Shown here piece by piece: positions 22,739 through 35,120 of a stretch of 43,039 bases of DNA. A program made the position numbers and the translations under genes. The notes under the pieces were generated by a model that worked only from the letters and a program-made list of their open reading frames with translations, was not told the DNA's origin and searched no databases. The stretch is from Escherichia phage SM_S24: sequence record PP920554.1; one strand, given 5' to 3'. Every line of letters begins with the position of its first letter. The stretch's first letter is position 1.

Positions 22739-22760
22739 GGGGCCGTATGGCCCCTTTTTT
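22739..22760. terminator. bidirectional intrinsic terminator between structural and leftward modules
   Basis: GGGGCC-GTAT-GGCCCC followed by TTTTTT; convergent gene ends on both sides. Confidence 0.65.
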
Positions 22761-23334
22761 AGTTTGAGTTTTCCCAGTCCATTTTGCGCCGCACTAGCGG
22801 GCTTTCGTAATACTCCTTTCCCTCCACTTCCACCAGGGGCCAGTCGTTCACAATCACGTATGGTTCTGCGATATCCTCAATAACGCCATGCGCGCTGTGC
22901 TGACAGAACGTTACCCCCACCAGGATAACCCCGGCAACGCGACGAGTGAGATACTCGCGAGCGCAACGGGCCTCGACCAGTCCTCGACGTATGCCGCTGG
23001 TGGCCTTAACCTCGTAGGTCCAGACGGCATCGATCACATGTTCGCGGAAGTCGGGACCGGATTTTACCTTGCGCTTGCCGACCATGATAATATCGCCGCG
23101 GTCGATAGTGTTAGCGCTAAACAGGCCGGTACGCATGAGTAAGCCTTGCGGGATACAGCTACGCCCACCCGTCTGCCCTTCGAGGTACATGCCTGCAAAC
23201 ATTTCGCCCAGCACACCAACCAGTCGGCTTTGCTTGCACGCGTCAGACTTTAAGCGCCACTGATCAAACTCGATGCTTGCTATCATTGCCGCCAGGTGGA
23301 ATTGTTTACCAGATATTTCATATTCGCCGTACAT
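22759..23334 (-). CDS. hypothetical protein (possible PD-(D/E)XK-like nuclease fold)
   Basis: 191 aa, ATG with RBS GAGGA; D(IIMV)...E-V-K arrangement (RGDIIMVGKRK...AVWTYEVK) compatible with a PD-(D/E)XK core but weak. Confidence 0.4.
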   Translation of the reverse strand: MYGEYEISGKQFHLAAMIASIEFDQWRLKSDACKQSRLVGVLGEMFAGMYLEGQTGGRSCIPQGLLMRTGLFSANTIDRGDIIMVGKRKVKSGPDFREHVIDAVWTYEVKATSGIRRGLVEARCAREYLTRRVAGVILVGVTFCQHSAHGVIEDIAEPYVIVNDWPLVEVEGKEYYESPLVRRKMDWENSN

Positions 23335-23376
23335 CGTGTGGTCCTCATTGATGCGGGCCGAAGCCCGCGATTAGAA

Positions 23377-23898
23377 TTATTTAAGTGCGCCAGTCACCAG
23401 TGTTTTTTCCATGTTGCGGAAGTCTTCCGGCGTCATGAGGATTTTGGACCCGTCTTCGCCAGTTAGAACGACCATAGGCTGGACTTCTTGATCTGCAATG
23501 CCGAAATTGGCGGCTTTAACCATCTTGCCAGCCGATGCCGAAGGATGCCACGTACCTGCGGTGGCGATGGGCCAACCTTTAAGGCTGTCGTATTGCGCTG
23601 CCGTTGTATCGACCTGAATCTCGTCGTGAACGGTCATGTGGGATTCGCCCAGCAAGGCCGCATACGCTACCAGGTCGACGATATTGTCTTCCTGGTGCTT
23701 ACGGTGCTGGCGCACCAGCTTCAGGCAGATCAAGAAGGTCCAGGCTTCTTGCTCGGTAAGGTCACGACCGGTAAGCGCGTTAAACACGGCGGCAATTTGT
23801 TTCGCGCTGCGTTCCTCTTTCGCGTTGTCATAGCCGTTTTCTTTTCCGCGCTGTTCCATAGTGGTGGCGGCGTTTTTGCAGTATTCGTATGCTTTCAT
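23377..23898 (-). CDS. hypothetical protein
   Basis: 173 aa, RBS AGGA; promoter-like boxes and a 5' UTR hairpin upstream; no motif recognised. Confidence 0.45.
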   Translation of the reverse strand: MKAYEYCKNAATTMEQRGKENGYDNAKEERSAKQIAAVFNALTGRDLTEQEAWTFLICLKLVRQHRKHQEDNIVDLVAYAALLGESHMTVHDEIQVDTTAAQYDSLKGWPIATAGTWHPSASAGKMVKAANFGIADQEVQPMVVLTGEDGSKILMTPEDFRNMEKTLVTGALK

Positions 23899-23944
23899 GA
23901 TGTGGTCCTTTTTCGGGGAGGCCGTATTGCCTCCCGACGCGTTA

Positions 23945-23974
23945 ACTATAGTGCAACCAACCTATTGGTTGCAA
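23945..23974 (-). promoter_or_regulatory. sigma70-like promoter with inverted-repeat operator
   Basis: minus strand TTGCAA-18 nt-TATAGT; spacer holds palindrome TGCAACCAA-CCTA-TTGGTTGCA; a 5' UTR hairpin follows. Confidence 0.45.
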
Positions 23975-24432
23975 GTAAATTTTGCAACGTTTATTGCGTA
24001 AATTTTCGGGACCAAATCGCTGCACGCCCGACGAATTGCCGCGATGTTCTTCTCGCAGTCCTCAATGATGACCAGTTCAGACACGTCCGCGTAGCAGACC
24101 ATTTTGAACACGGCGCACGCCTTAAACTCTGGCGGCGGGGTGTCGTCCAGCATGTGGCGCATGAATAACCGGCCTACAGGGAAGACTTCCAGTTGTTTAG
24201 CGGTGGTGTCCCAACATTCTCGCTGCCGGTTGGTCAGATACGCGATCTCGAAGCCTTGCTCTTTATACATGCGCAGTAGCGGCAGCATATCCATGTTCAG
24301 GTCTTCGCGGACGTGCGCCTTGTGCCACTTCGCCCAAAAGGTGGATTTAGTTTTTATGCCAGGCACCAGATCGGCACGCGCATCGCTTGAGCCGTTAATA
24401 ACGCCATCCAAATCGCAAATCAGTAATTTCAT
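23962..24432 (-). CDS. HAD-superfamily phosphatase-like protein
   Basis: 156 aa; N-terminal LICDLDGVI matches HAD motif I (DxDG), downstream Thr (AYLTNR) plausible motif II. Confidence 0.5.
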   Translation of the reverse strand: MKLLICDLDGVINGSSDARADLVPGIKTKSTFWAKWHKAHVREDLNMDMLPLLRMYKEQGFEIAYLTNRQRECWDTTAKQLEVFPVGRLFMRHMLDDTPPPEFKACAVFKMVCYADVSELVIIEDCEKNIAAIRRACSDLVPKIYAINVAKFTCNQ

Positions 24433-24653
24433 TTTAAGCTCTCAATAAGTGTCTGTCGGGCGCTTCGCGCAGTAAAGGAGTTGCATACGAAATGGCAACG
24501 CCGAGTTATGACAAGCCAACCGGTGAGGTCAAGGCCCATGATGCGTCCGGGATGGGACGCGCGCACCACATGATTGCGGCGTGGGTCGATGCAGAAGTCT
24601 TTTTGCATTTGGTCTACTACCGCGGGGTCGCGGTCAACGATTAAGATATTCAT
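24429..24653 (-). CDS. hypothetical small protein
   Basis: about 74 aa from ATG 24653 (track ORF begins at a GTG); ATGA coupling to the downstream HAD gene. Confidence 0.3.
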   Translation of the reverse strand: MNILIVDRDPAVVDQMQKDFCIDPRRNHVVRASHPGRIMGLDLTGWLVITRRCHFVCNSFTARSARQTLIESLK

Positions 24654-25119
24654 GTAGCTCACTCTCGCTCATTATTTCAATTTGTGCGCTGCCGCATGGC
24701 GGCGCTTCGTCAAATATTATCAATTGCTGGCACTTGTTATTGCTCGGCCCGACTTCACCGGTTACAGCATGTATGAATCGGATCCGCCAGTCCAGAAGAA
24801 TTATCAGGTTTGCAGTCTTCCTGGCCAGCTTCGCCCACTTCGTCGACGTGTCCTGATTCAGTAGCATGACCGTCCGGCGTCCGTGCGCTGCGCACTCTAC
24901 CCACGGCAGCGGATCGGAATACGGCGGATTGCACCACTTCCACCCTTTCAACTCGGACCAGTCCACATCAAGCGCGCTGTGTTCCGCCGTGAAGTAACGT
25001 GGTAGCAGATGATTGGTGTCGCTTGCCGCCATATCGTAACGGAATCGGTATTTCTGACGAAGCGGTTTAAATAAAGCTGGCGGCGTGCGCCAGCTATCTT
25101 TTTGCTCATTCTCCGTCAT
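24634..25119 (-). CDS. DNA N6-adenine methyltransferase (phage Dam-like)
   Basis: 161 aa; WRTPP near the N-terminus, DMAASD and catalytic CNPPY motifs typical of small phage N6-adenine methyltransferases. Confidence 0.75.
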   Translation of the reverse strand: MTENEQKDSWRTPPALFKPLRQKYRFRYDMAASDTNHLLPRYFTAEHSALDVDWSELKGWKWCNPPYSDPLPWVECAAHGRRTVMLLNQDTSTKWAKLARKTANLIILLDWRIRFIHAVTGEVGPSNNKCQQLIIFDEAPPCGSAQIEIMSESELHEYLNR

Positions 25120-25564
25120 AGTCGGGATCTATCGCATACAGGGCGGTTTTCTTGCCACTGGATAGCACGCGTTGGACTCGGGATAGCTCCGCCCTACTGA
25201 GCGGTCGGCTATCGGAATAGTAGCTGCCGTTTGCACGCCACGCTATACGCACCAGTCCTTTCCGCGGGATCGAAGACTGGCTGCCCTTCGGACGGACGTA
25301 CTCCTCGGCCAGTTTGCAATGCTCGCGCAGACCTTCGGCAGTGATGCGGTTTAGCGCGACGGTGGTTGTGTACCCGGTGCGCTGCATAATACCCATCAAC
25401 TCATACAGCAGTTCGAAGCGCTCCTCTAACTCCTTGCGCATCTTTTCCTCGCCTTCATAGCTCGCCATGTAGGTATCCGCCAGCGCGTTCGCCCGTTCGA
25501 CCTGTTCGCGGGCTTCGAGGCATTGCGCGGCCCAGTAATTTTTCTCTTCTTGTAAAATTTTCAT
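25106..25564 (-). CDS. hypothetical protein
   Basis: 152 aa, RBS GGAGA; first gene of a leftward operon downstream of paired TGCAACCAAT boxes. Confidence 0.4.
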   Translation of the reverse strand: MKILQEEKNYWAAQCLEAREQVERANALADTYMASYEGEEKMRKELEERFELLYELMGIMQRTGYTTTVALNRITAEGLREHCKLAEEYVRPKGSQSSIPRKGLVRIAWRANGSYYSDSRPLSRAELSRVQRVLSSGKKTALYAIDPDYDGE

Positions 25565-25645
25565 CGTGTTGTCTCCAGGTATTAAAAAAGGCGTCCAAAC
25601 CGGACACCCTTAAGATAATGCAACCAATATGATTATGCAACCAAT

Positions 25646-25969
25646 TTACGAATAAAAATTTGGGTCGCGTGCAACGTCTACTAGATACAGGTTACTCATG
25701 CGATTGCCGTAGTGCCCCGGTGTGCGCTGGCGGCACACAACGGCGAAGCCTGGTGGAATTGTATTGCCCGTCTCGATAATCCACGCCACGCGTGCGCCAG
25801 ACAGCGTCTTGCCGTTGTATTCGATGCGCGTGCCACCATCGGCAGTGTTAAGGTTGCCAATCTTACATCCTGTGGACTTCAGGCGAATGACACCGGTCTT
25901 GCTGTCGTAGGAAAAAAGCTGATTGGTCATTGCCACTGAAAAGTCGATTGCGTCGAATGCAGTATTCAT
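25646..25969 (-). CDS. hypothetical protein
   Basis: 107 aa, ATGA coupling with the upstream gene; faint resemblance to HNH_3/NUMOD-type DNA-binding proteins but no catalytic His seen. Confidence 0.4.
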   Translation of the reverse strand: MNTAFDAIDFSVAMTNQLFSYDSKTGVIRLKSTGCKIGNLNTADGGTRIEYNGKTLSGARVAWIIETGNTIPPGFAVVCRQRTPGHYGNRMSNLYLVDVARDPNFYS

Positions 25970-26661
25970 TTTAAATTTTCCTCGTTAACCGCTATCGCGA
26001 AGCCGCGCGGGGTGAGTGAGCGGATTAATTTTGTACGAGCGGATTTACCACCGAGGCGACTATACTGCTTCGAGTACCCTTTTTCAACGAAAACAGGTTT
26101 CTTCTCTGGCATACGGAAGCCGTTTCCAGTCCATAAGCAGGTCAGCTTCGGATATGAATCGCGGGCGTTGATGTATTCAGGGAACAACGGATGTACGTCA
26201 TCCTCCGGCAGATATCCCCCATACTCCCACGGGTCGAACGAGTGATCAGGCTTGCGCCACTGGGTGGAAAGCACACTGCGCGGATTCTCAATCATATATG
26301 GCACTTCGAAGAAGTCACCCAGGTAAGCGGCGATCTTCGCGGTTCGCACCGCCTTAAGCTGAAAGGCGGGGTCTTTTGCACGCTTGCGCGGGAAAGCTGG
26401 CGCGCCGCTCACTGCCAGATCCGTACACGGAGGGAACGCATAGATTATATCCGGCGTACCGAAATCGCCATTCATCGCGCGGTCCACGAAGTCCAGGTCG
26501 ATAAACTCATTGCGATACCGTATTCCGCGACCATAAATCCGGTAGTCAAGGTACGACCCGTGATCGGCTTCGGAGTAGTTAAAACAGTAGCACTTATGCC
26601 CCATCTCGGCAGCACGCTCAATCATCAAGCCGCTGCCGTCAAACAATGACCAGATTATCAT
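25966..26661 (-). CDS. DNA cytosine-5 methyltransferase-like protein (short)
   Basis: 231 aa; SLFDGSG (motif I-like FxGxG), AFPPCTD (motif IV-like Pro-Cys), MIENP (motif VI-like ENV); unusually short for a complete C5 enzyme. Confidence 0.45.
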   Translation of the reverse strand: MIIWSLFDGSGLMIERAAEMGHKCYCFNYSEADHGSYLDYRIYGRGIRYRNEFIDLDFVDRAMNGDFGTPDIIYAFPPCTDLAVSGAPAFPRKRAKDPAFQLKAVRTAKIAAYLGDFFEVPYMIENPRSVLSTQWRKPDHSFDPWEYGGYLPEDDVHPLFPEYINARDSYPKLTCLWTGNGFRMPEKKPVFVEKGYSKQYSRLGGKSARTKLIRSLTPRGFAIAVNEENLK

Positions 26662-28082
26662 TTGCGCGCCTTCTTAGCTTTCATGTATTCCATCAAGTCG
26701 TCCTGAATGTCTCGCTTACTGTCGCGACGCTCGGCGACCAATTCGTCCAGTGTCCCGCGAGCCTGGATAATGTAGACGAATACTGGTCGAGGGTGTCCGG
26801 CTTGCATCTGGCGAACCGGCCCGATACGTTCAACGATCTGCGAAAAGTGTTCAAAGTTCCAGGTGTCGGAGAAGATTGCCAGGTGATGACCGCCGTCCTG
26901 CAAGTTAAGGCCGTGGCCCGCCGATGCCGGGTGTGCAAACATGATGGGGATCTCGCCCCTGTTCCATGCTTCCATATCCTTATTGCCCTGCTTACCTTTA
27001 CCCAACGCAACGCCGTGCGGGAATTTCTTCTTGAGACGTGCCAGATCATGCTTGTACTGGTAGGCAACGAGCAACGGTGCGCCGTTCAACTCCTCCACGA
27101 TACTTTCCAGCGCGTCCAGTTTAGCGTCGTGAATTTTCACCCATTCGTCGGTGCGCTCGCCGTCTTCGTCGACCTTATACACGGCCCCGGAAGCAAGCTG
27201 AAGGCACTTAATAGTCTTCGAAGCAGCGTTCGCCGCCTCCACCGTTCCGCTTTCCAGTTCGGCAAATAGCTCCGCTTCGAATTGGTCATAAATCTTGCGG
27301 GCTTTTTTCGGCAGGTCCACAACAACCGGCGTATAGATTGGCTTGTCACACCCGAAGTATTCAGCCGCATCAACGGTTAGCGACACGTCGGACAGTCGTT
27401 GTTGTATTTCTTTCTCGGAGTTCTTAAGCGGGGCGTGCTGCATCGTGAAGCTGCCAGGCTTAACAGGCTTGCTAATAAACCAGCGGTCCGTGAACGCCTT
27501 ATAGCTACTGCCGAGACGTTCGCCGCCGTCGACAAACCACGTCTGACCCCATAGGTCTTTCAGCCCGTTCGGTGCGGGTGTGCCAGTCAGGTTAATCCAG
27601 CGCTTGACGTGCTTATGTGCAATCGCTGCCAGCGCACGGGCGCGCTTACTTCCCTGCTTGCTTCTATAGCCTTTCAGCTTAGTGGATTCATCGGCAACAA
27701 CGACCGTAAAGGGCCACTCGTCGCCGCAATACTCTACAAGCCACTCAACCACATCATAGTTAACACAAACCACGTTAGCGTCGCTCTCAAGCGCAGCGAT
27801 GCGGTCCTTCTCTGGTCCGGTGCCGTCTACTACCAGCAGGGCAGGGAAGCGCCATTTTTCTTGCTCCGGAGGCCATGTACCGGACGCAACGCGCAGCGGG
27901 GCCAGCACCAGTACGCGGTCCTCCTGGTTGGATAGGATGCCGGTCTGGAACATTTTATTCAGCGCCCACATAGTCGCGCCGGTTTTACCCGACCCCATTG
28001 TCGCCCAAATATTGCAGCGCTTATGCTTGAGGATGAACGCGGTTATCAACTTCTGATATTCGCGACGTCGGAAACGTGCCAT
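26658..28082 (-). CDS. SNF2/DEAD-like helicase
   Basis: 474 aa from ATG 28082; REYQ Q-motif, Walker A ATMGSGKT, DExx box VVADEST; ATGA coupling to the downstream gene. Confidence 0.75.
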   Translation of the reverse strand: MARFRRREYQKLITAFILKHKRCNIWATMGSGKTGATMWALNKMFQTGILSNQEDRVLVLAPLRVASGTWPPEQEKWRFPALLVVDGTGPEKDRIAALESDANVVCVNYDVVEWLVEYCGDEWPFTVVVADESTKLKGYRSKQGSKRARALAAIAHKHVKRWINLTGTPAPNGLKDLWGQTWFVDGGERLGSSYKAFTDRWFISKPVKPGSFTMQHAPLKNSEKEIQQRLSDVSLTVDAAEYFGCDKPIYTPVVVDLPKKARKIYDQFEAELFAELESGTVEAANAASKTIKCLQLASGAVYKVDEDGERTDEWVKIHDAKLDALESIVEELNGAPLLVAYQYKHDLARLKKKFPHGVALGKGKQGNKDMEAWNRGEIPIMFAHPASAGHGLNLQDGGHHLAIFSDTWNFEHFSQIVERIGPVRQMQAGHPRPVFVYIIQARGTLDELVAERRDSKRDIQDDLMEYMKAKKARK

Positions 28083-28086
28083 ATCT

Positions 28087-28305
28087 TTATTCCGCCTTTT
28101 TCCAGACTTCGGTTTCACTGTTCCAGTTCCTTTTTGTAGCGTCGTAGTTGGTGGCGTGTCCGATGTGCACACCCGTCGCCCGGAAGCTCTTAAATTTTTG
28201 CCAGCATACCGTCAACGGCAGCGGGTCATTCATGCCCGCGATAAACCATACTCGATCGCCCGGTTTACATTCGCCCAGCTTGGTGAGTCGGTAATGATCT
28301 TTCAT
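28087..28305 (-). CDS. hypothetical small protein
   Basis: 72 aa from ATG 28305 (RBS GGGAGA, about 7-nt spacer); track ORF starts at TTG 28320. Confidence 0.3.
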   Translation of the reverse strand: MKDHYRLTKLGECKPGDRVWFIAGMNDPLPLTVCWQKFKSFRATGVHIGHATNYDATKRNWNSETEVWKKAE

Positions 28306-28317
28306 CGTCATGTCTCC

Positions 28318-28341
28318 CAAAAATGGCGGGACAAGCCCGCC
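28318..28341 (-). terminator. intra-operon terminator/attenuator (minus strand)
   Basis: GGCGGGCTTGTCCCGCC followed by ATTTTT on the minus strand, overlapping the RBS of the next gene. Confidence 0.45.
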
Positions 28342-28348
28342 GTATTAA

Positions 28349-28522
28349 TTATTTTTGCTCTGCGCGGTAGCGGCGCTGCCGTTCGCGCTCTTTTTTATTG
28401 CGGCACGATTTGCACTCGGCCCGATACCCGTCCGGGCTGCGTGCAGTCTTACCAGTGTATTTATGGAACTGGGATAGCGGTTTAATGCAGCCGCAATTAC
28501 TGCAACGTTTTTCTTCAATCAT
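28349..28522 (-). CDS. zinc-ribbon protein
   Basis: 57 aa from ATG 28522 (RBS GAGGG); two CxxC pairs (CSNCGC...CKSC) and basic C-terminus. Confidence 0.4.
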   Translation of the reverse strand: MIEEKRCSNCGCIKPLSQFHKYTGKTARSPDGYRAECKSCRNKKERERQRRYRAEQK

Positions 28523-28553
28523 CTCTAAAACCCTCGATATTGCTAACCGGCAC

Positions 28554-28582
28554 ACTATACCGCTATGCGACCAATTCAGCAA
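28554..28582 (-). promoter_or_regulatory. sigma70-like promoter for the zinc-ribbon operon
   Basis: minus strand TTGCTG-17 nt-TATAGT with ATTGGTTGC / ATTGGTCGC boxes at the -35 and in the spacer. Confidence 0.4.
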
Positions 28583-28841
28583 CCAATAAATCACAGTCGG
28601 CGATGTTGTCTATAACGCGAACGTCAGCGCCGCGGCGGGCCATCCGCTCATGTTCACGTACCTGGTGCGGCTTCGGTTTTCCTCCTGGGCGCTTCACTTC
28701 AACGAACACTATTTTGCCGTTGATGATGATAATCAGGTCGGGCGCACCTGCGCGCCCCTCCCAGGCCATTTTGCGGCAGAATCCGCCTACCTCTTTCACC
28801 CGTCGCATCAGGTGACTTTGAATCTTGCCTTCTGGTGTCAT
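28563..28841 (-). CDS. VRR-NUC domain nuclease
   Basis: 92 aa from ATG 28841 (TAATG overlap with the polymerase stop); GAPDLIIIINGKIVFVEVKRPGGKPKPHQ matches the VRR-NUC PD-(D/E)XK core. Confidence 0.7.
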   Translation of the reverse strand: MTPEGKIQSHLMRRVKEVGGFCRKMAWEGRAGAPDLIIIINGKIVFVEVKRPGGKPKPHQVREHERMARRGADVRVIDNIADCDLLVAELVA

Positions 28842-31132
28842 TACTTCCTGTACCTGTACATGATGTCGCCTTCGGCGGCAAGCGGGAAGCCTTTCGCCCA
28901 AACAGGCAGGTCGCACATCAGCGCGCATAGCTCCTCGGTCGTGTAGTCGTCAGTATCCGGAACCTCGGTGATCAGTTCATCGTGTACGGACAGTACGATC
29001 TCATACCCCGCGGCTTCAACGCCTGGCATGGACCATGCGAGAATATCGCGGCATAGCGCCTGTACGATGTTTTCCGTCAGTTTGCCGCCGTAGGTATACT
29101 GGAAGCCCCACTGGCGCGTCGTCTGATTCTCGCCCTGGTATTTGATGCGGGTGCTGGTGCGCTTCTTGCCGGTGTCTTCGTCGATCTCGGTCGTGACAGA
29201 CAGCGCGATGCCCGGGTAGCTCATGATGCGCCCTGACGGCAACTCAATTTTCAACCACCACCCTGCGGCGTTCGGGTCGTCGCGCTCCTCGTCGAAGGTT
29301 GGGTCATGCTTCGCCTTCGTGCGAACAATCTTAAGCGCTTTCCTGCCATCCGGGCGAACGTTCGCACCCGCCCAGTATGCTTTGCCCGGATTGCGGATCG
29401 CGCAGAGCACCGCGTCTTCCAGTTCAGCCCAAAATGCTACCGTCTTAGGGTGAGCCTCGCGCCACATACGTTTGATCGCGTCACACGTCAACCACACGTT
29501 TTTCGGCAGTATGTAAGTTGGGCGCTCGTCTTTCTTGCCAGGCTTCGGCGGGCGCTTGGCTTCGTTAATGCGGGCATACTCATAACCACGTTTCGCCGCG
29601 GCCCAAATATGATCGGGGAATGTGCCCTTCATGACGTCCGCCATCGCATACAGGTCGAGGCCCAGGTTTTTAGCAAACTGCAGGAACGCTGCAACACCGC
29701 CACCATAGCCCAACCCCAATTCGCACGCCTTACCAATCTGGCGCAAGTCTTTGCGGTTGGCTTTGATGTATTCCGGGTCGAGGCCAAACATCTTACCGGC
29801 AGTTTCACAATAGATATCGCGACCCGCCCTGAACACCATTAGCGCGGTTTTCTCCCCCGCGATCCAGGCGAGGCCACGCCCTTCCACGTTGGAGTAGTCA
29901 GCTACGACAAACTTCTTACCCTTCGCCGGAATAATGCACCCGCGAACAGTCGATGCCGTTAGCTTCGATATGTCATACGCCCAGTGCGCTGTCCCGCGTA
30001 ACAGGGAGTTGATGCCGTTGGTAAGCATGTGCGACCGCACCCAAAACGCGACGTCGCTCTCGCCTTCACGGCGCTTAATCTTCCCTTCGTGGTCGTCGCT
30101 ATACTCGCCGCGTGCCAGGTTTTGCGGCTGGAAGCCTTTGCCCGCCCAGCGTAGCGTGCGTTTCGCCCCACCATACTGGAGACACCCACGACGGCGACCA
30201 TCTGCAGATAAGCCATTAACGAGCGGATTGTACTTAGTCGATGCCGTTGATGATGCACCGAGGCGCATCTCGATAAGCACTTTGCCCTCGTCGGGGAAGT
30301 CCGGGTCTTCCAGCAGGTCGTTAAGCGTGGATTTCTGCGCGTTGTGTATTGTGAACGCAGGCGCGAGGTCGCGCAGCGCTGGCAGGAAGTCATTGCCGGT
30401 CAGCTTACCGCCAAAGCGCTCCCATGCTTCTTCCTTCAATTCTTCCTTATGCGCCTGTACCGCTTTGATCGCGGCGCGCGCCAGGTCAACGTCCACATAG
30501 AAGCCGCGGTCATTGATCAACTGGTCAATAAGCAGGATTTCGTCTTCCTTCGGCGTGTTACCCCAGTCCGGTATGCGCCAGTAGACTTCCCTCATCGCTA
30601 TAATATCCAGCGCGGCATAGCGCAGGAATTTAGCCCACTCCTCGTGGTGCGTCTCGCGCGTGTAGCGGCGGATTTTGTATGTCTTAGGGGTTGGCTTACA
30701 GAATCGTTTGATCAGCGCCTTGCCCGCCTTATCCTTCGCGTGCTCTGCGTCGACGCCCAACACCTGGCACTGCATATCGAGGCTACCCGGCAGCGCGTGT
30801 CGAAAGGCCATAATCATGGTGTCTTCGATCTGGCCTACCGGCAGGTCAATGCCCCACTTCTCGCGAATAACCAGGCGGTCAAACAGGAGGCCGTTAGCCA
30901 TCACGATTTTTGCTTTCTTGCGGGATACCTGGCGGAGAGCCTTGCGCAGTTCACGCGGCATTGTAGGGGACTCGGTGCAATCCCATGTCTGCACGCGCCC
31001 CTCGTCGATGGCGTAGGTGCAAATCATAATCTCGGTTGTCGGGTGCTCCGCGTAGGCGTATGCGCCAACTTTCTTCAGGTCCACCCCGCTAAATGTCTCG
31101 GTATCGAGAAAAAGGCGTTCGAAGTCTTTCAT
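28841..31132 (-). CDS. DNA polymerase I-like (family A) with 3'-5' exonuclease domain
   Basis: 763 aa; N-terminal exonuclease motif LFLDTETFSG, polymerase motif A-like VVADYSNVEGRGLAWIAGE; RBS GAGGA. Confidence 0.9.
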   Translation of the reverse strand: MKDFERLFLDTETFSGVDLKKVGAYAYAEHPTTEIMICTYAIDEGRVQTWDCTESPTMPRELRKALRQVSRKKAKIVMANGLLFDRLVIREKWGIDLPVGQIEDTMIMAFRHALPGSLDMQCQVLGVDAEHAKDKAGKALIKRFCKPTPKTYKIRRYTRETHHEEWAKFLRYAALDIIAMREVYWRIPDWGNTPKEDEILLIDQLINDRGFYVDVDLARAAIKAVQAHKEELKEEAWERFGGKLTGNDFLPALRDLAPAFTIHNAQKSTLNDLLEDPDFPDEGKVLIEMRLGASSTASTKYNPLVNGLSADGRRRGCLQYGGAKRTLRWAGKGFQPQNLARGEYSDDHEGKIKRREGESDVAFWVRSHMLTNGINSLLRGTAHWAYDISKLTASTVRGCIIPAKGKKFVVADYSNVEGRGLAWIAGEKTALMVFRAGRDIYCETAGKMFGLDPEYIKANRKDLRQIGKACELGLGYGGGVAAFLQFAKNLGLDLYAMADVMKGTFPDHIWAAAKRGYEYARINEAKRPPKPGKKDERPTYILPKNVWLTCDAIKRMWREAHPKTVAFWAELEDAVLCAIRNPGKAYWAGANVRPDGRKALKIVRTKAKHDPTFDEERDDPNAAGWWLKIELPSGRIMSYPGIALSVTTEIDEDTGKKRTSTRIKYQGENQTTRQWGFQYTYGGKLTENIVQALCRDILAWSMPGVEAAGYEIVLSVHDELITEVPDTDDYTTEELCALMCDLPVWAKGFPLAAEGDIMYRYRK

Positions 31133-35090: not shown

Positions 35091-35120
35091 ATGATAGATT
35101 GGTTGCAGGATGGGTGTCAA
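35091..35120 (-). promoter_or_regulatory. leftward early promoter (sigma70-like)
   Basis: minus strand TTGACA-18 nt-TATCAT; TGCAACCAAT box inside the spacer. Confidence 0.55.

Follow-up and report, generated by a model that had tools for sequence, protein, structure and literature searches.

How can a DNA cytosine methyltransferase work with no room for a normal target-recognition domain? The question is raised by a locus of Escherichia phage SM_S24 (sequence record PP920554.1), of which the whole stretch of 43,039 nucleotides is called the window here. In this locus, a gene for a 231-residue protein with motifs of C5-cytosine methyltransferases lies near a gene for a 161-residue Dam-type N6-adenine methyltransferase. 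An earlier note, made from the sequence alone, had proposed that the two enzymes and a nearby HAD-type phosphatase modify the phage DNA against restriction, possibly with non-canonical chemistry by the short C5 enzyme. I found that the locus very likely encodes two orphan DNA methyltransferases dependent on S-adenosylmethionine (SAM), a minimal Dam of the T1 type and a minimal short Dcm that would make 5-methylcytosine (5mC), in a leftward operon of a Dhillonvirus. Neither gene is new: both are already annotated, both are core Dhillonvirus genes, and the short-Dcm family has a tested member. In Oekolampad (Bas18) of the BASEL collection, they are labelled 'Dcm-like C5 cytosine methyltransferase' and 'Dam-like N6-adenine methyltransferase', and the SECphi18 counterpart of the 231-residue protein, 99% identical, is annotated as 'Cytosine specific methyltransferase'.

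The 231-residue protein, its family and its fold

Motifs I, IV and VI of C5-cytosine methyltransferases, which the earlier note had read in the 231-residue protein, are present as it described and are conserved across the family. By translation, motif I (FDGSG) occupies residues 7-11 (nucleotides 26629-26643), motif IV (FPPC) residues 76-79 (26425-26436), and motif VI (ENP) residues 125-127 (26281-26289). A C-terminal conserved motif, RSLTPRGFA, is encoded at nucleotides 25996-26022. No substitution of F7, G9, S10, G11, P77, P78, C79, E125, N126, or P127 occurs in 32 homologues (58-84% identity), and C79, E125, and P127 are still invariant in 67 cluster representatives (31-55% identity). FxGSG, PPCT, and ENP are invariant among the close relatives. 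The six motifs of the two methyltransferases, including those of the Dam-type enzyme described below, are not chance matches.

The protein matches the PHROGs family phrog_757 ('DNA methyltransferase') over residues 1-229 (E 2e-82). The family is large: there are 2886 homologues in a 90%-clustered protein collection, with about 230 residues throughout among the matches listed, and 1951 clusters at 50% identity (E ≤0.001), with a median of 234 residues in the best 149. Overall, the median length of the family is 232-234 residues. Members were found in 1511 phage records, among them those of Dhillonvirus, Drexlerviridae, rV5-like myophages, Krischvirus RB49, and Salmonella 9NA, while the short-Dcm and Dam genes of the window each occur in about 150 phage records at 90% identity or more. 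Is the family also common in bacteria? When 185,579 bacterial species genomes were scanned in a pattern-limited way, just seven loci were obtained. The one that was examined, in Hymenobacter, adjoins an S24 repressor-like gene and is prophage-like, and no restriction nuclease partner was seen at this locus. Thus, the family is essentially phage-borne and orphan. No Vsr partner of the 231-residue enzyme was seen among the neighbouring open reading frames (ORFs) scanned, and the longer members of the family (292-453 residues), scanned for fused recognition domains, have no Pfam domain in any case. Another very short C5-methyltransferase belongs to a phage of an unrelated type: the filamentous, Pf-like Pseudomonas phage 99-2 of Tubulavirales has a 214-residue 'DNA cytosine methyltransferase' (2339-2983 on the plus strand of its record) with 39.5% identity to residues 71-148 of the 231-residue protein.

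The AlphaFold model of the 231-residue protein is confident (predicted local distance difference test, pLDDT, 90.5; predicted template modelling score, pTM, 0.89), and Foldseek searches against PDB and the viral BFVD library both agree on a C5-methyltransferase fold. In the model, FDGSG lies directly behind the predicted strand 2-6, and ENP closes the predicted strand 122-126. The motif conservation, the confident model, and the Foldseek matches thus speak against an unrelated fold, which the earlier note had named as a possible refutation. Judging from the model, the protein is a C5-cytosine-methyltransferase-fold enzyme.

Where, then, is the target-recognition domain (TRD)? Escherichia coli Dcm/M.EcoRII, M.HhaI, and M.HaeIII, which belong to PF00145, have motifs I (FxGxG), IV (PC), and VI (EN[VP]) in the same order and with similar spacing. 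The landmarks of E. coli Dcm are F93 (motif I), PCQ at 176, ENV at 224, QxRxR at 274, RRLTPRECARL at about 400, and GNSV at 435. The spacing of motifs I-IV is 71 residues in the 231-residue protein versus 83 in E. coli Dcm, and that of motifs IV-VI is 47 versus 48. In contrast, the distance from ENP to the C-terminal motif is about 90 residues versus about 210. Canonical C5-methyltransferases are 327-472 residues in length, with a large TRD between motifs VIII and IX. These two motifs are separated by about 125 residues in E. coli Dcm, whereas the entire part after ENP is about 105 residues in the 231-residue protein. The view that the protein is too short to hold a normal TRD is therefore borne out by the motif spacing. 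In the model, no sizeable TRD is present between motifs VIII and IX, just short loops and helices: the predicted strands 140-142 and 174-179 flank a 31-residue loop/helix insert, and the latter strand is followed by loop and short helices over about 35 residues and then by the terminal helix 219-229. The Rossmann catalytic core would have been kept, while of the TRD segment just short helices and loops would remain, at roughly residues 143-173 and 181-213.

The best structural matches of the protein are DNMT3A and DNMT3B, whose catalytic domains likewise stand out for a small target-recognition region. In DNMT3, the site is read by a dimer or tetramer. The sequence identity to the 231-residue protein is just 13-15%, the phage protein lacks the regulatory domains, and the target of DNMT3 is CpG, in contrast to the CCWGG presumed for the phage protein.

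Product and recognition site of the short enzyme

What would such an enzyme make? In the proposed mechanism, Cys79 of the PC motif would attack C6, Glu125 of ENP would protonate N3, and the methyl group of SAM would move to C5 to give 5-methylcytosine. The experimental anchor for this is a member of the same family, phrog_757. KarlJaspers (Bas06) has a 711-bp 'Dcm-like' gene whose 236-residue product is 54% identical to the 231-residue protein over its full length (E 1e-86), with C82, E128, and K175 aligned to C79, E125, and K172. As in the window, the gene is an orphan in an E. coli siphophage, although KarlJaspers belongs to Drexlerviridae, not to Dhillonvirus, and its gene neighbourhood is different.

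Phage K42 is 95.4% identical to KarlJaspers, and four of four K42 escapers from the retron Ec86 were mutated in the 711-bp dcm (bioRxiv 10.1101/2023.08.16.553469). Expression of K42 Dcm was toxic solely when Ec86 was present. By LC-MS (mass spectrometry coupled to liquid chromatography) against a 5mC standard, the 5mC content of the multicopy single-stranded DNA (msDNA) was high with wild-type K42 Dcm but not with the quadruple mutant C82A/E128A/K175A/K176A. When CCTGG of the Ec86 msDNA was mutated, the defence was lost, and either C sufficed. The host MG1655 is dcm+, yet the msDNA methylation was low without the phage dcm (bioRxiv 10.1101/2023.08.16.553469). According to the reference lists of later papers, the published version is titled 'DNA methylation activates retron Ec86 filaments...'. 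The conclusion is repeated in later papers. By homology to the K42 enzyme, 5-methylcytosine would be the product of the 231-residue enzyme, and by the same analogy its site is probably CCWGG-like.

Several observations weigh against reading the 231-residue protein as a Dcm-type enzyme of this kind. The profile search that the earlier note had suggested succeeded with phrog_757 and failed with Pfam, NCBIfam, and PDB. The protein has no Pfam match even at E 1, PF00145 included, no NCBIfam match at E 0.1, and no PADLOC match at E 0.01, and PDB sequence searches with the single protein and two family profiles reached no solved C5-methyltransferase. The sole PDB sequence matches of the family, ToxD kinase and borneol dehydrogenase, were rejected as spurious. 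PF00145 is matched weakly by 20 of the 32 family members; four relatives of about 63% identity pass its cut-off (22.8-28.5 bits versus 22) but over motifs I-IV only (profile positions 4-94 of 324). Automatic pipelines give the family inconsistent labels because it is missed by Pfam, NCBIfam, and PADLOC; its public labels are hypothetical protein, DNA methyltransferase, or Dcm. There is also no significant sequence match to E. coli Dcm. An hhalign comparison of the family profile with E. coli Dcm aligned 27 columns around motif IV, with C79 on PCQ, at E 0.18. Thus, 'Dcm-like' is a functional label and not a statement of orthology. Furthermore, IRSLTPRGFA resembles motif IX (RxLTPRExA) by sequence and motif X (GNAVPPxLA) by position, in the final helix of the catalytic domain. 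The identity to the tested enzyme family is 54%, and the fourth mutated position of K42 Dcm, K176, corresponds to Leu173 in the 231-residue protein, while most homologues have Lys. Lastly, the CCWGG specificity of K42 Dcm was assumed by analogy with the host Dcm and is backed by the msDNA mutants alone, in a dcm+ host. Given this assumption and the low msDNA 5mC in MG1655, CCWGG is a presumed recognition site of K42 Dcm.

Could the enzyme make ordinary 5mC at a site other than CCWGG? It might use a shorter or degenerate site, or hairpin or single-stranded DNA, and 'Dcm-like' would then be a misnomer. This alternative is possible but doubtful. It would suit a recognition region of about 35-60 residues, as opposed to the 125 or so of E. 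coli Dcm, and the lack of detectable sequence homology to that enzyme beyond motif IV. It would also suit the K42 experiments insofar as msDNA 5mC was low in the dcm+ host by itself and the CCTGG mutants abolish defence without defining the site. On the other hand, the same mutants show that the motif matters for the effect of the K42 enzyme, and the family is concentrated in enterobacterial phages. In addition, the KarlJaspers genome has 125 CCWGG sites versus 122 expected, while CCSGG has been purged (2 versus 11.6 expected), which is consistent with CCWGG-specific protection. This contrast between CCWGG and CCSGG was not seen in T1, for which no Dcm gene is annotated.

The non-canonical chemistry raised in the earlier note fares much worse. 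It would mean the transfer of a non-methyl group (carboxymethyl from carboxy-SAM, Cx-SAM) or the start of a hypermodification. The C-terminal half of the protein does lie beyond PF00145 recognition, and a HAD phosphatase is nearby. However, the product of the homologous K42 enzyme matched the 5mC standard in a manner dependent on Cys, Glu, and Lys, the Ksap1 gene separates the HAD gene from the methyltransferase genes, and there is no kinase, glycosyltransferase, or aminotransferase among the ten ORFs scanned (22759-28928). A family that has a member making ordinary 5mC argues against this chemistry, and I regard it as very improbable. Just as improbable is a protein whose main task is other than DNA self-protection, one that acts on RNA, like the tRNA m5C enzyme DNMT2, or that, like DNMT3L, binds DNA in a regulatory role or without activity: the BASEL phenotypes without a clear restriction benefit would fit it, but DNA C5-methyltransferases rank above DNMT2, DNA in the form of msDNA was methylated in vivo by the K42 homologue, and inactivity is disfavoured because a family this deeply diverged has kept the catalytic Cys and Glu without exception.

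The Dam-type enzyme and possible protection of phage DNA

The confidence of the earlier note in the 161-residue protein as a small phage Dam-type enzyme proved justified. By translation, WRTPP occupies residues 10-14 (nucleotides 25078-25092), the motif I-like DMAASD residues 29-34 (25018-25035), and motif IV, CNPPY, residues 63-67 (24919-24933). The protein matches PF05869 at E 2.5e-36 (125.3 bits versus a gathering cut-off of 28.1), phrog_111 at E 9e-55, and the PADLOC orphan methyltransferase model at E 3e-11. Its identity is 31% with T1 Dam (E 1e-16), 30% with KarlJaspers Dam, and about 37% with Stx-phage homologues. T1 Dam and Stx-phage Dam belong to the same Pfam family and have the same motif order of WxTP, DxAAS, and NPPY. 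In contrast to T1 Dam (237 residues), the protein is about 75 residues shorter, and unlike the NCBIfam equivalogs it scores under the cut-off of TIGR01712 (86.6 versus 97.05 bits). A structure search for Dam relatives found no solved structure. On sequence grounds, the assignment to the phage Dam family of N6-adenine methyltransferases is secure. T1 Dam is specific for GATC, and the product of the 161-residue enzyme is most likely N6-methyladenine at GATC, as its family membership indicates.

What would the two enzymes do for the phage? They would methylate the replicating phage DNA without the need for host Dam or Dcm, and this methylation would shield it from restriction enzymes that are blocked by Dam- or Dcm-type marks. 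The standard reading, anti-restriction by self-methylation, is plausible. The window has 157 GATC sites (observed/expected 0.78) and 145 CCWGG sites (0.92), so both are near expectation and neither has been purged. Several 6-bp palindromes have no site in the window: GGCGCC (20.6 expected), GCCGGC (15.3), AAGCTT (14.8), CAGCTG (13.8), GGGCCC (11.8), and AGGCCT (9.7). GGCC and CTAG are also under-represented. Together with the counts for KarlJaspers and T1, these numbers fit methylation-based protection of GATC and CCWGG alongside the avoidance of other sites, although three genomes make this no more than suggestive.

The restriction phenotypes count against such a benefit. Dhillonvirus phages proved comparatively sensitive to those type I and type II restriction-modification systems that the BASEL study tested, and in the related Drexlerviridae the same study saw no simple relation of restriction resistance to the presence of methyltransferase genes. 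No literature was found on Dhillonvirus virion DNA methylation or restriction digests. By my own reasoning, none of the systems tested in the BASEL study is obviously Dam- or Dcm-sensitive. The better-documented consequence of methylation is a cost, as phage Dcm and Dam both act as retron triggers; the cost of the two enzymes would be exposure to defences of the retron Ec86/Eco1 type.

The operon, its other genes and the meaning of the locus

Positions 23900-26700 share 99.4% identity with Escherichia phage vB_EcoD_Over9000 and 90-94% with many other Dhillonvirus (HK578-like) E. coli siphophages, and at least 80% of this region is covered in 145 phage records. By these sequence matches, the window is a Dhillonvirus genome. 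The genes are listed in Table 1 in their minus-strand order, which runs from the SNF2 helicase through the 231-residue gene, the 107-residue ORF, the 152-residue ORF, Dam, and Ksap1 to HAD. The earlier note had placed the 231-residue gene two genes upstream of Dam; it is actually the third upstream, since the 107-residue and 152-residue ORFs sit in between. An ATGA start/stop overlap couples the 231-residue gene to the 107-residue ORF, in the same way as it couples the helicase to the 231-residue gene. The helicase neighbour places both methyltransferase genes inside a long leftward replication operon, between the helicase and the operon end. Among promoter-like sites, those at 35120 and 35224 are the strongest, and a hairpin resembling a terminator lies at 22739-22754; all of these are consensus matches only.

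Table 1. Genes around the two predicted methyltransferases of the window, in the order of the leftward operon
Feature	Coordinates	Strand	Matches and remarks
SNF2-family DNA helicase	26658..28172	-	PF00176 E 8.6e-11; phrog_62 E 7e-157; stop overlaps the start of the 231-residue gene (ATGA)
Predicted short Dcm-like C5-cytosine DNA methyltransferase, 231 residues, phrog_757 family	25966..26661	-	
HNH-like/homing-endonuclease-like ORF, 107 residues	25646..25969	-	phrog_99 E 1.9e-15; no Pfam match
Conserved ORF, function unassigned, 152 residues	25106..25564	-	phrog_10530 E 1.4e-89; no Pfam match; overlaps the Dam start by 14 nucleotides
Phage Dam-family N6-adenine DNA methyltransferase, 161 residues	24634..25119	-	PF05869; phrog_111
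Ksap1 homologue, 74 residues	24429..24653	-	phrog_10685 E 2.4e-41
Putative HAD-superfamily phosphatase, 156 residues	23962..24432	-	phrog_415 E 1.1e-36; N-terminal DLDGV
DUF6378-domain protein, 173 residues	23377-23898	-	DUF6378 E 8.8e-10

A putative HAD-type phosphatase does lie nearby, as the earlier note had said, with the nucleophile motif DLDGV at residues 7-11. Its part in DNA modification found no support: the Ksap1 gene intervenes, and the only family matches are of the acid-phosphatase or polynucleotide kinase (PNK) phosphatase type. The matched phrog_415 is of the polynucleotide kinase/phosphatase type, the PF03767 score is 23.4 bits, under the cut-off of 27, and the NCBIfam matches are far below threshold. 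There is a weak PDB match to a class B acid phosphatase (2i33) and a weak similarity to a T1 PNK-like protein (E 9e-4). To judge from these matches, the 156-residue protein is probably a nucleotidase or a PNK-type phosphatase.

The Ksap1 homologue, whose gene lies between those of Dam and HAD, shares 82% identity with the Ksap1 of SECphi18 and 93% with the Bas18 copy. Ksap1 is a Dhillonvirus activator of Klebsiella pneumoniae Avs2, and in SECphi18 it is flanked by a methyltransferase gene and a phosphatase gene (PMC11564622). The Ksap1 of the window has V30 and M39 and is thus SECphi6-like at two of the three positions that jointly give escape from Avs2; F60 is kept.

In Oekolampad, the 107-residue ORF bears the label of a putative homing endonuclease; it has no part in the modification function. 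The usual HNH histidines look substituted by eye (ARVAW; VVCRQR), there is no Pfam HNH match, and by its sequence the ORF may be a degenerate endonuclease. The 152-residue ORF is labelled 'DNA ligase' in PHROGs and SECphi18. It has no ligase domain and no Pfam match, and one public record reads 'Possible DNA ligase but no evidence'. The label is probably a propagated mis-annotation. The 173-residue DUF6378 protein is a 'Nucleotide modification associated protein' in SECphi18, while its PHROGs label is 'phosphofructokinase'.

What does the locus mean? Its value now is practical and structural. On the structural side, how does so small an enzyme read a specific DNA site, and which site is it? 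The short-Dcm family has no Pfam model and no solved structure. A speculative and rather unlikely proposal is that the short Dcm of about 230 residues is the smallest natural architecture of a DNA C5-methyltransferase and that its site is read via a DNMT3-like oligomer or a mini-module of about 35-60 residues. Its specificity would then perhaps be unlike that of the host Dcm, in that the site might be shorter or degenerate or hairpins might be preferred. If true, the differing specificity could be the reason that the retron Ec86 is triggered by the phage enzyme rather than by the host Dcm. For users of these phages, the two genes predict sensitivity to methylation-sensing defences such as the retron Eco1, as well as independence from the Dam/Dcm status of the host.

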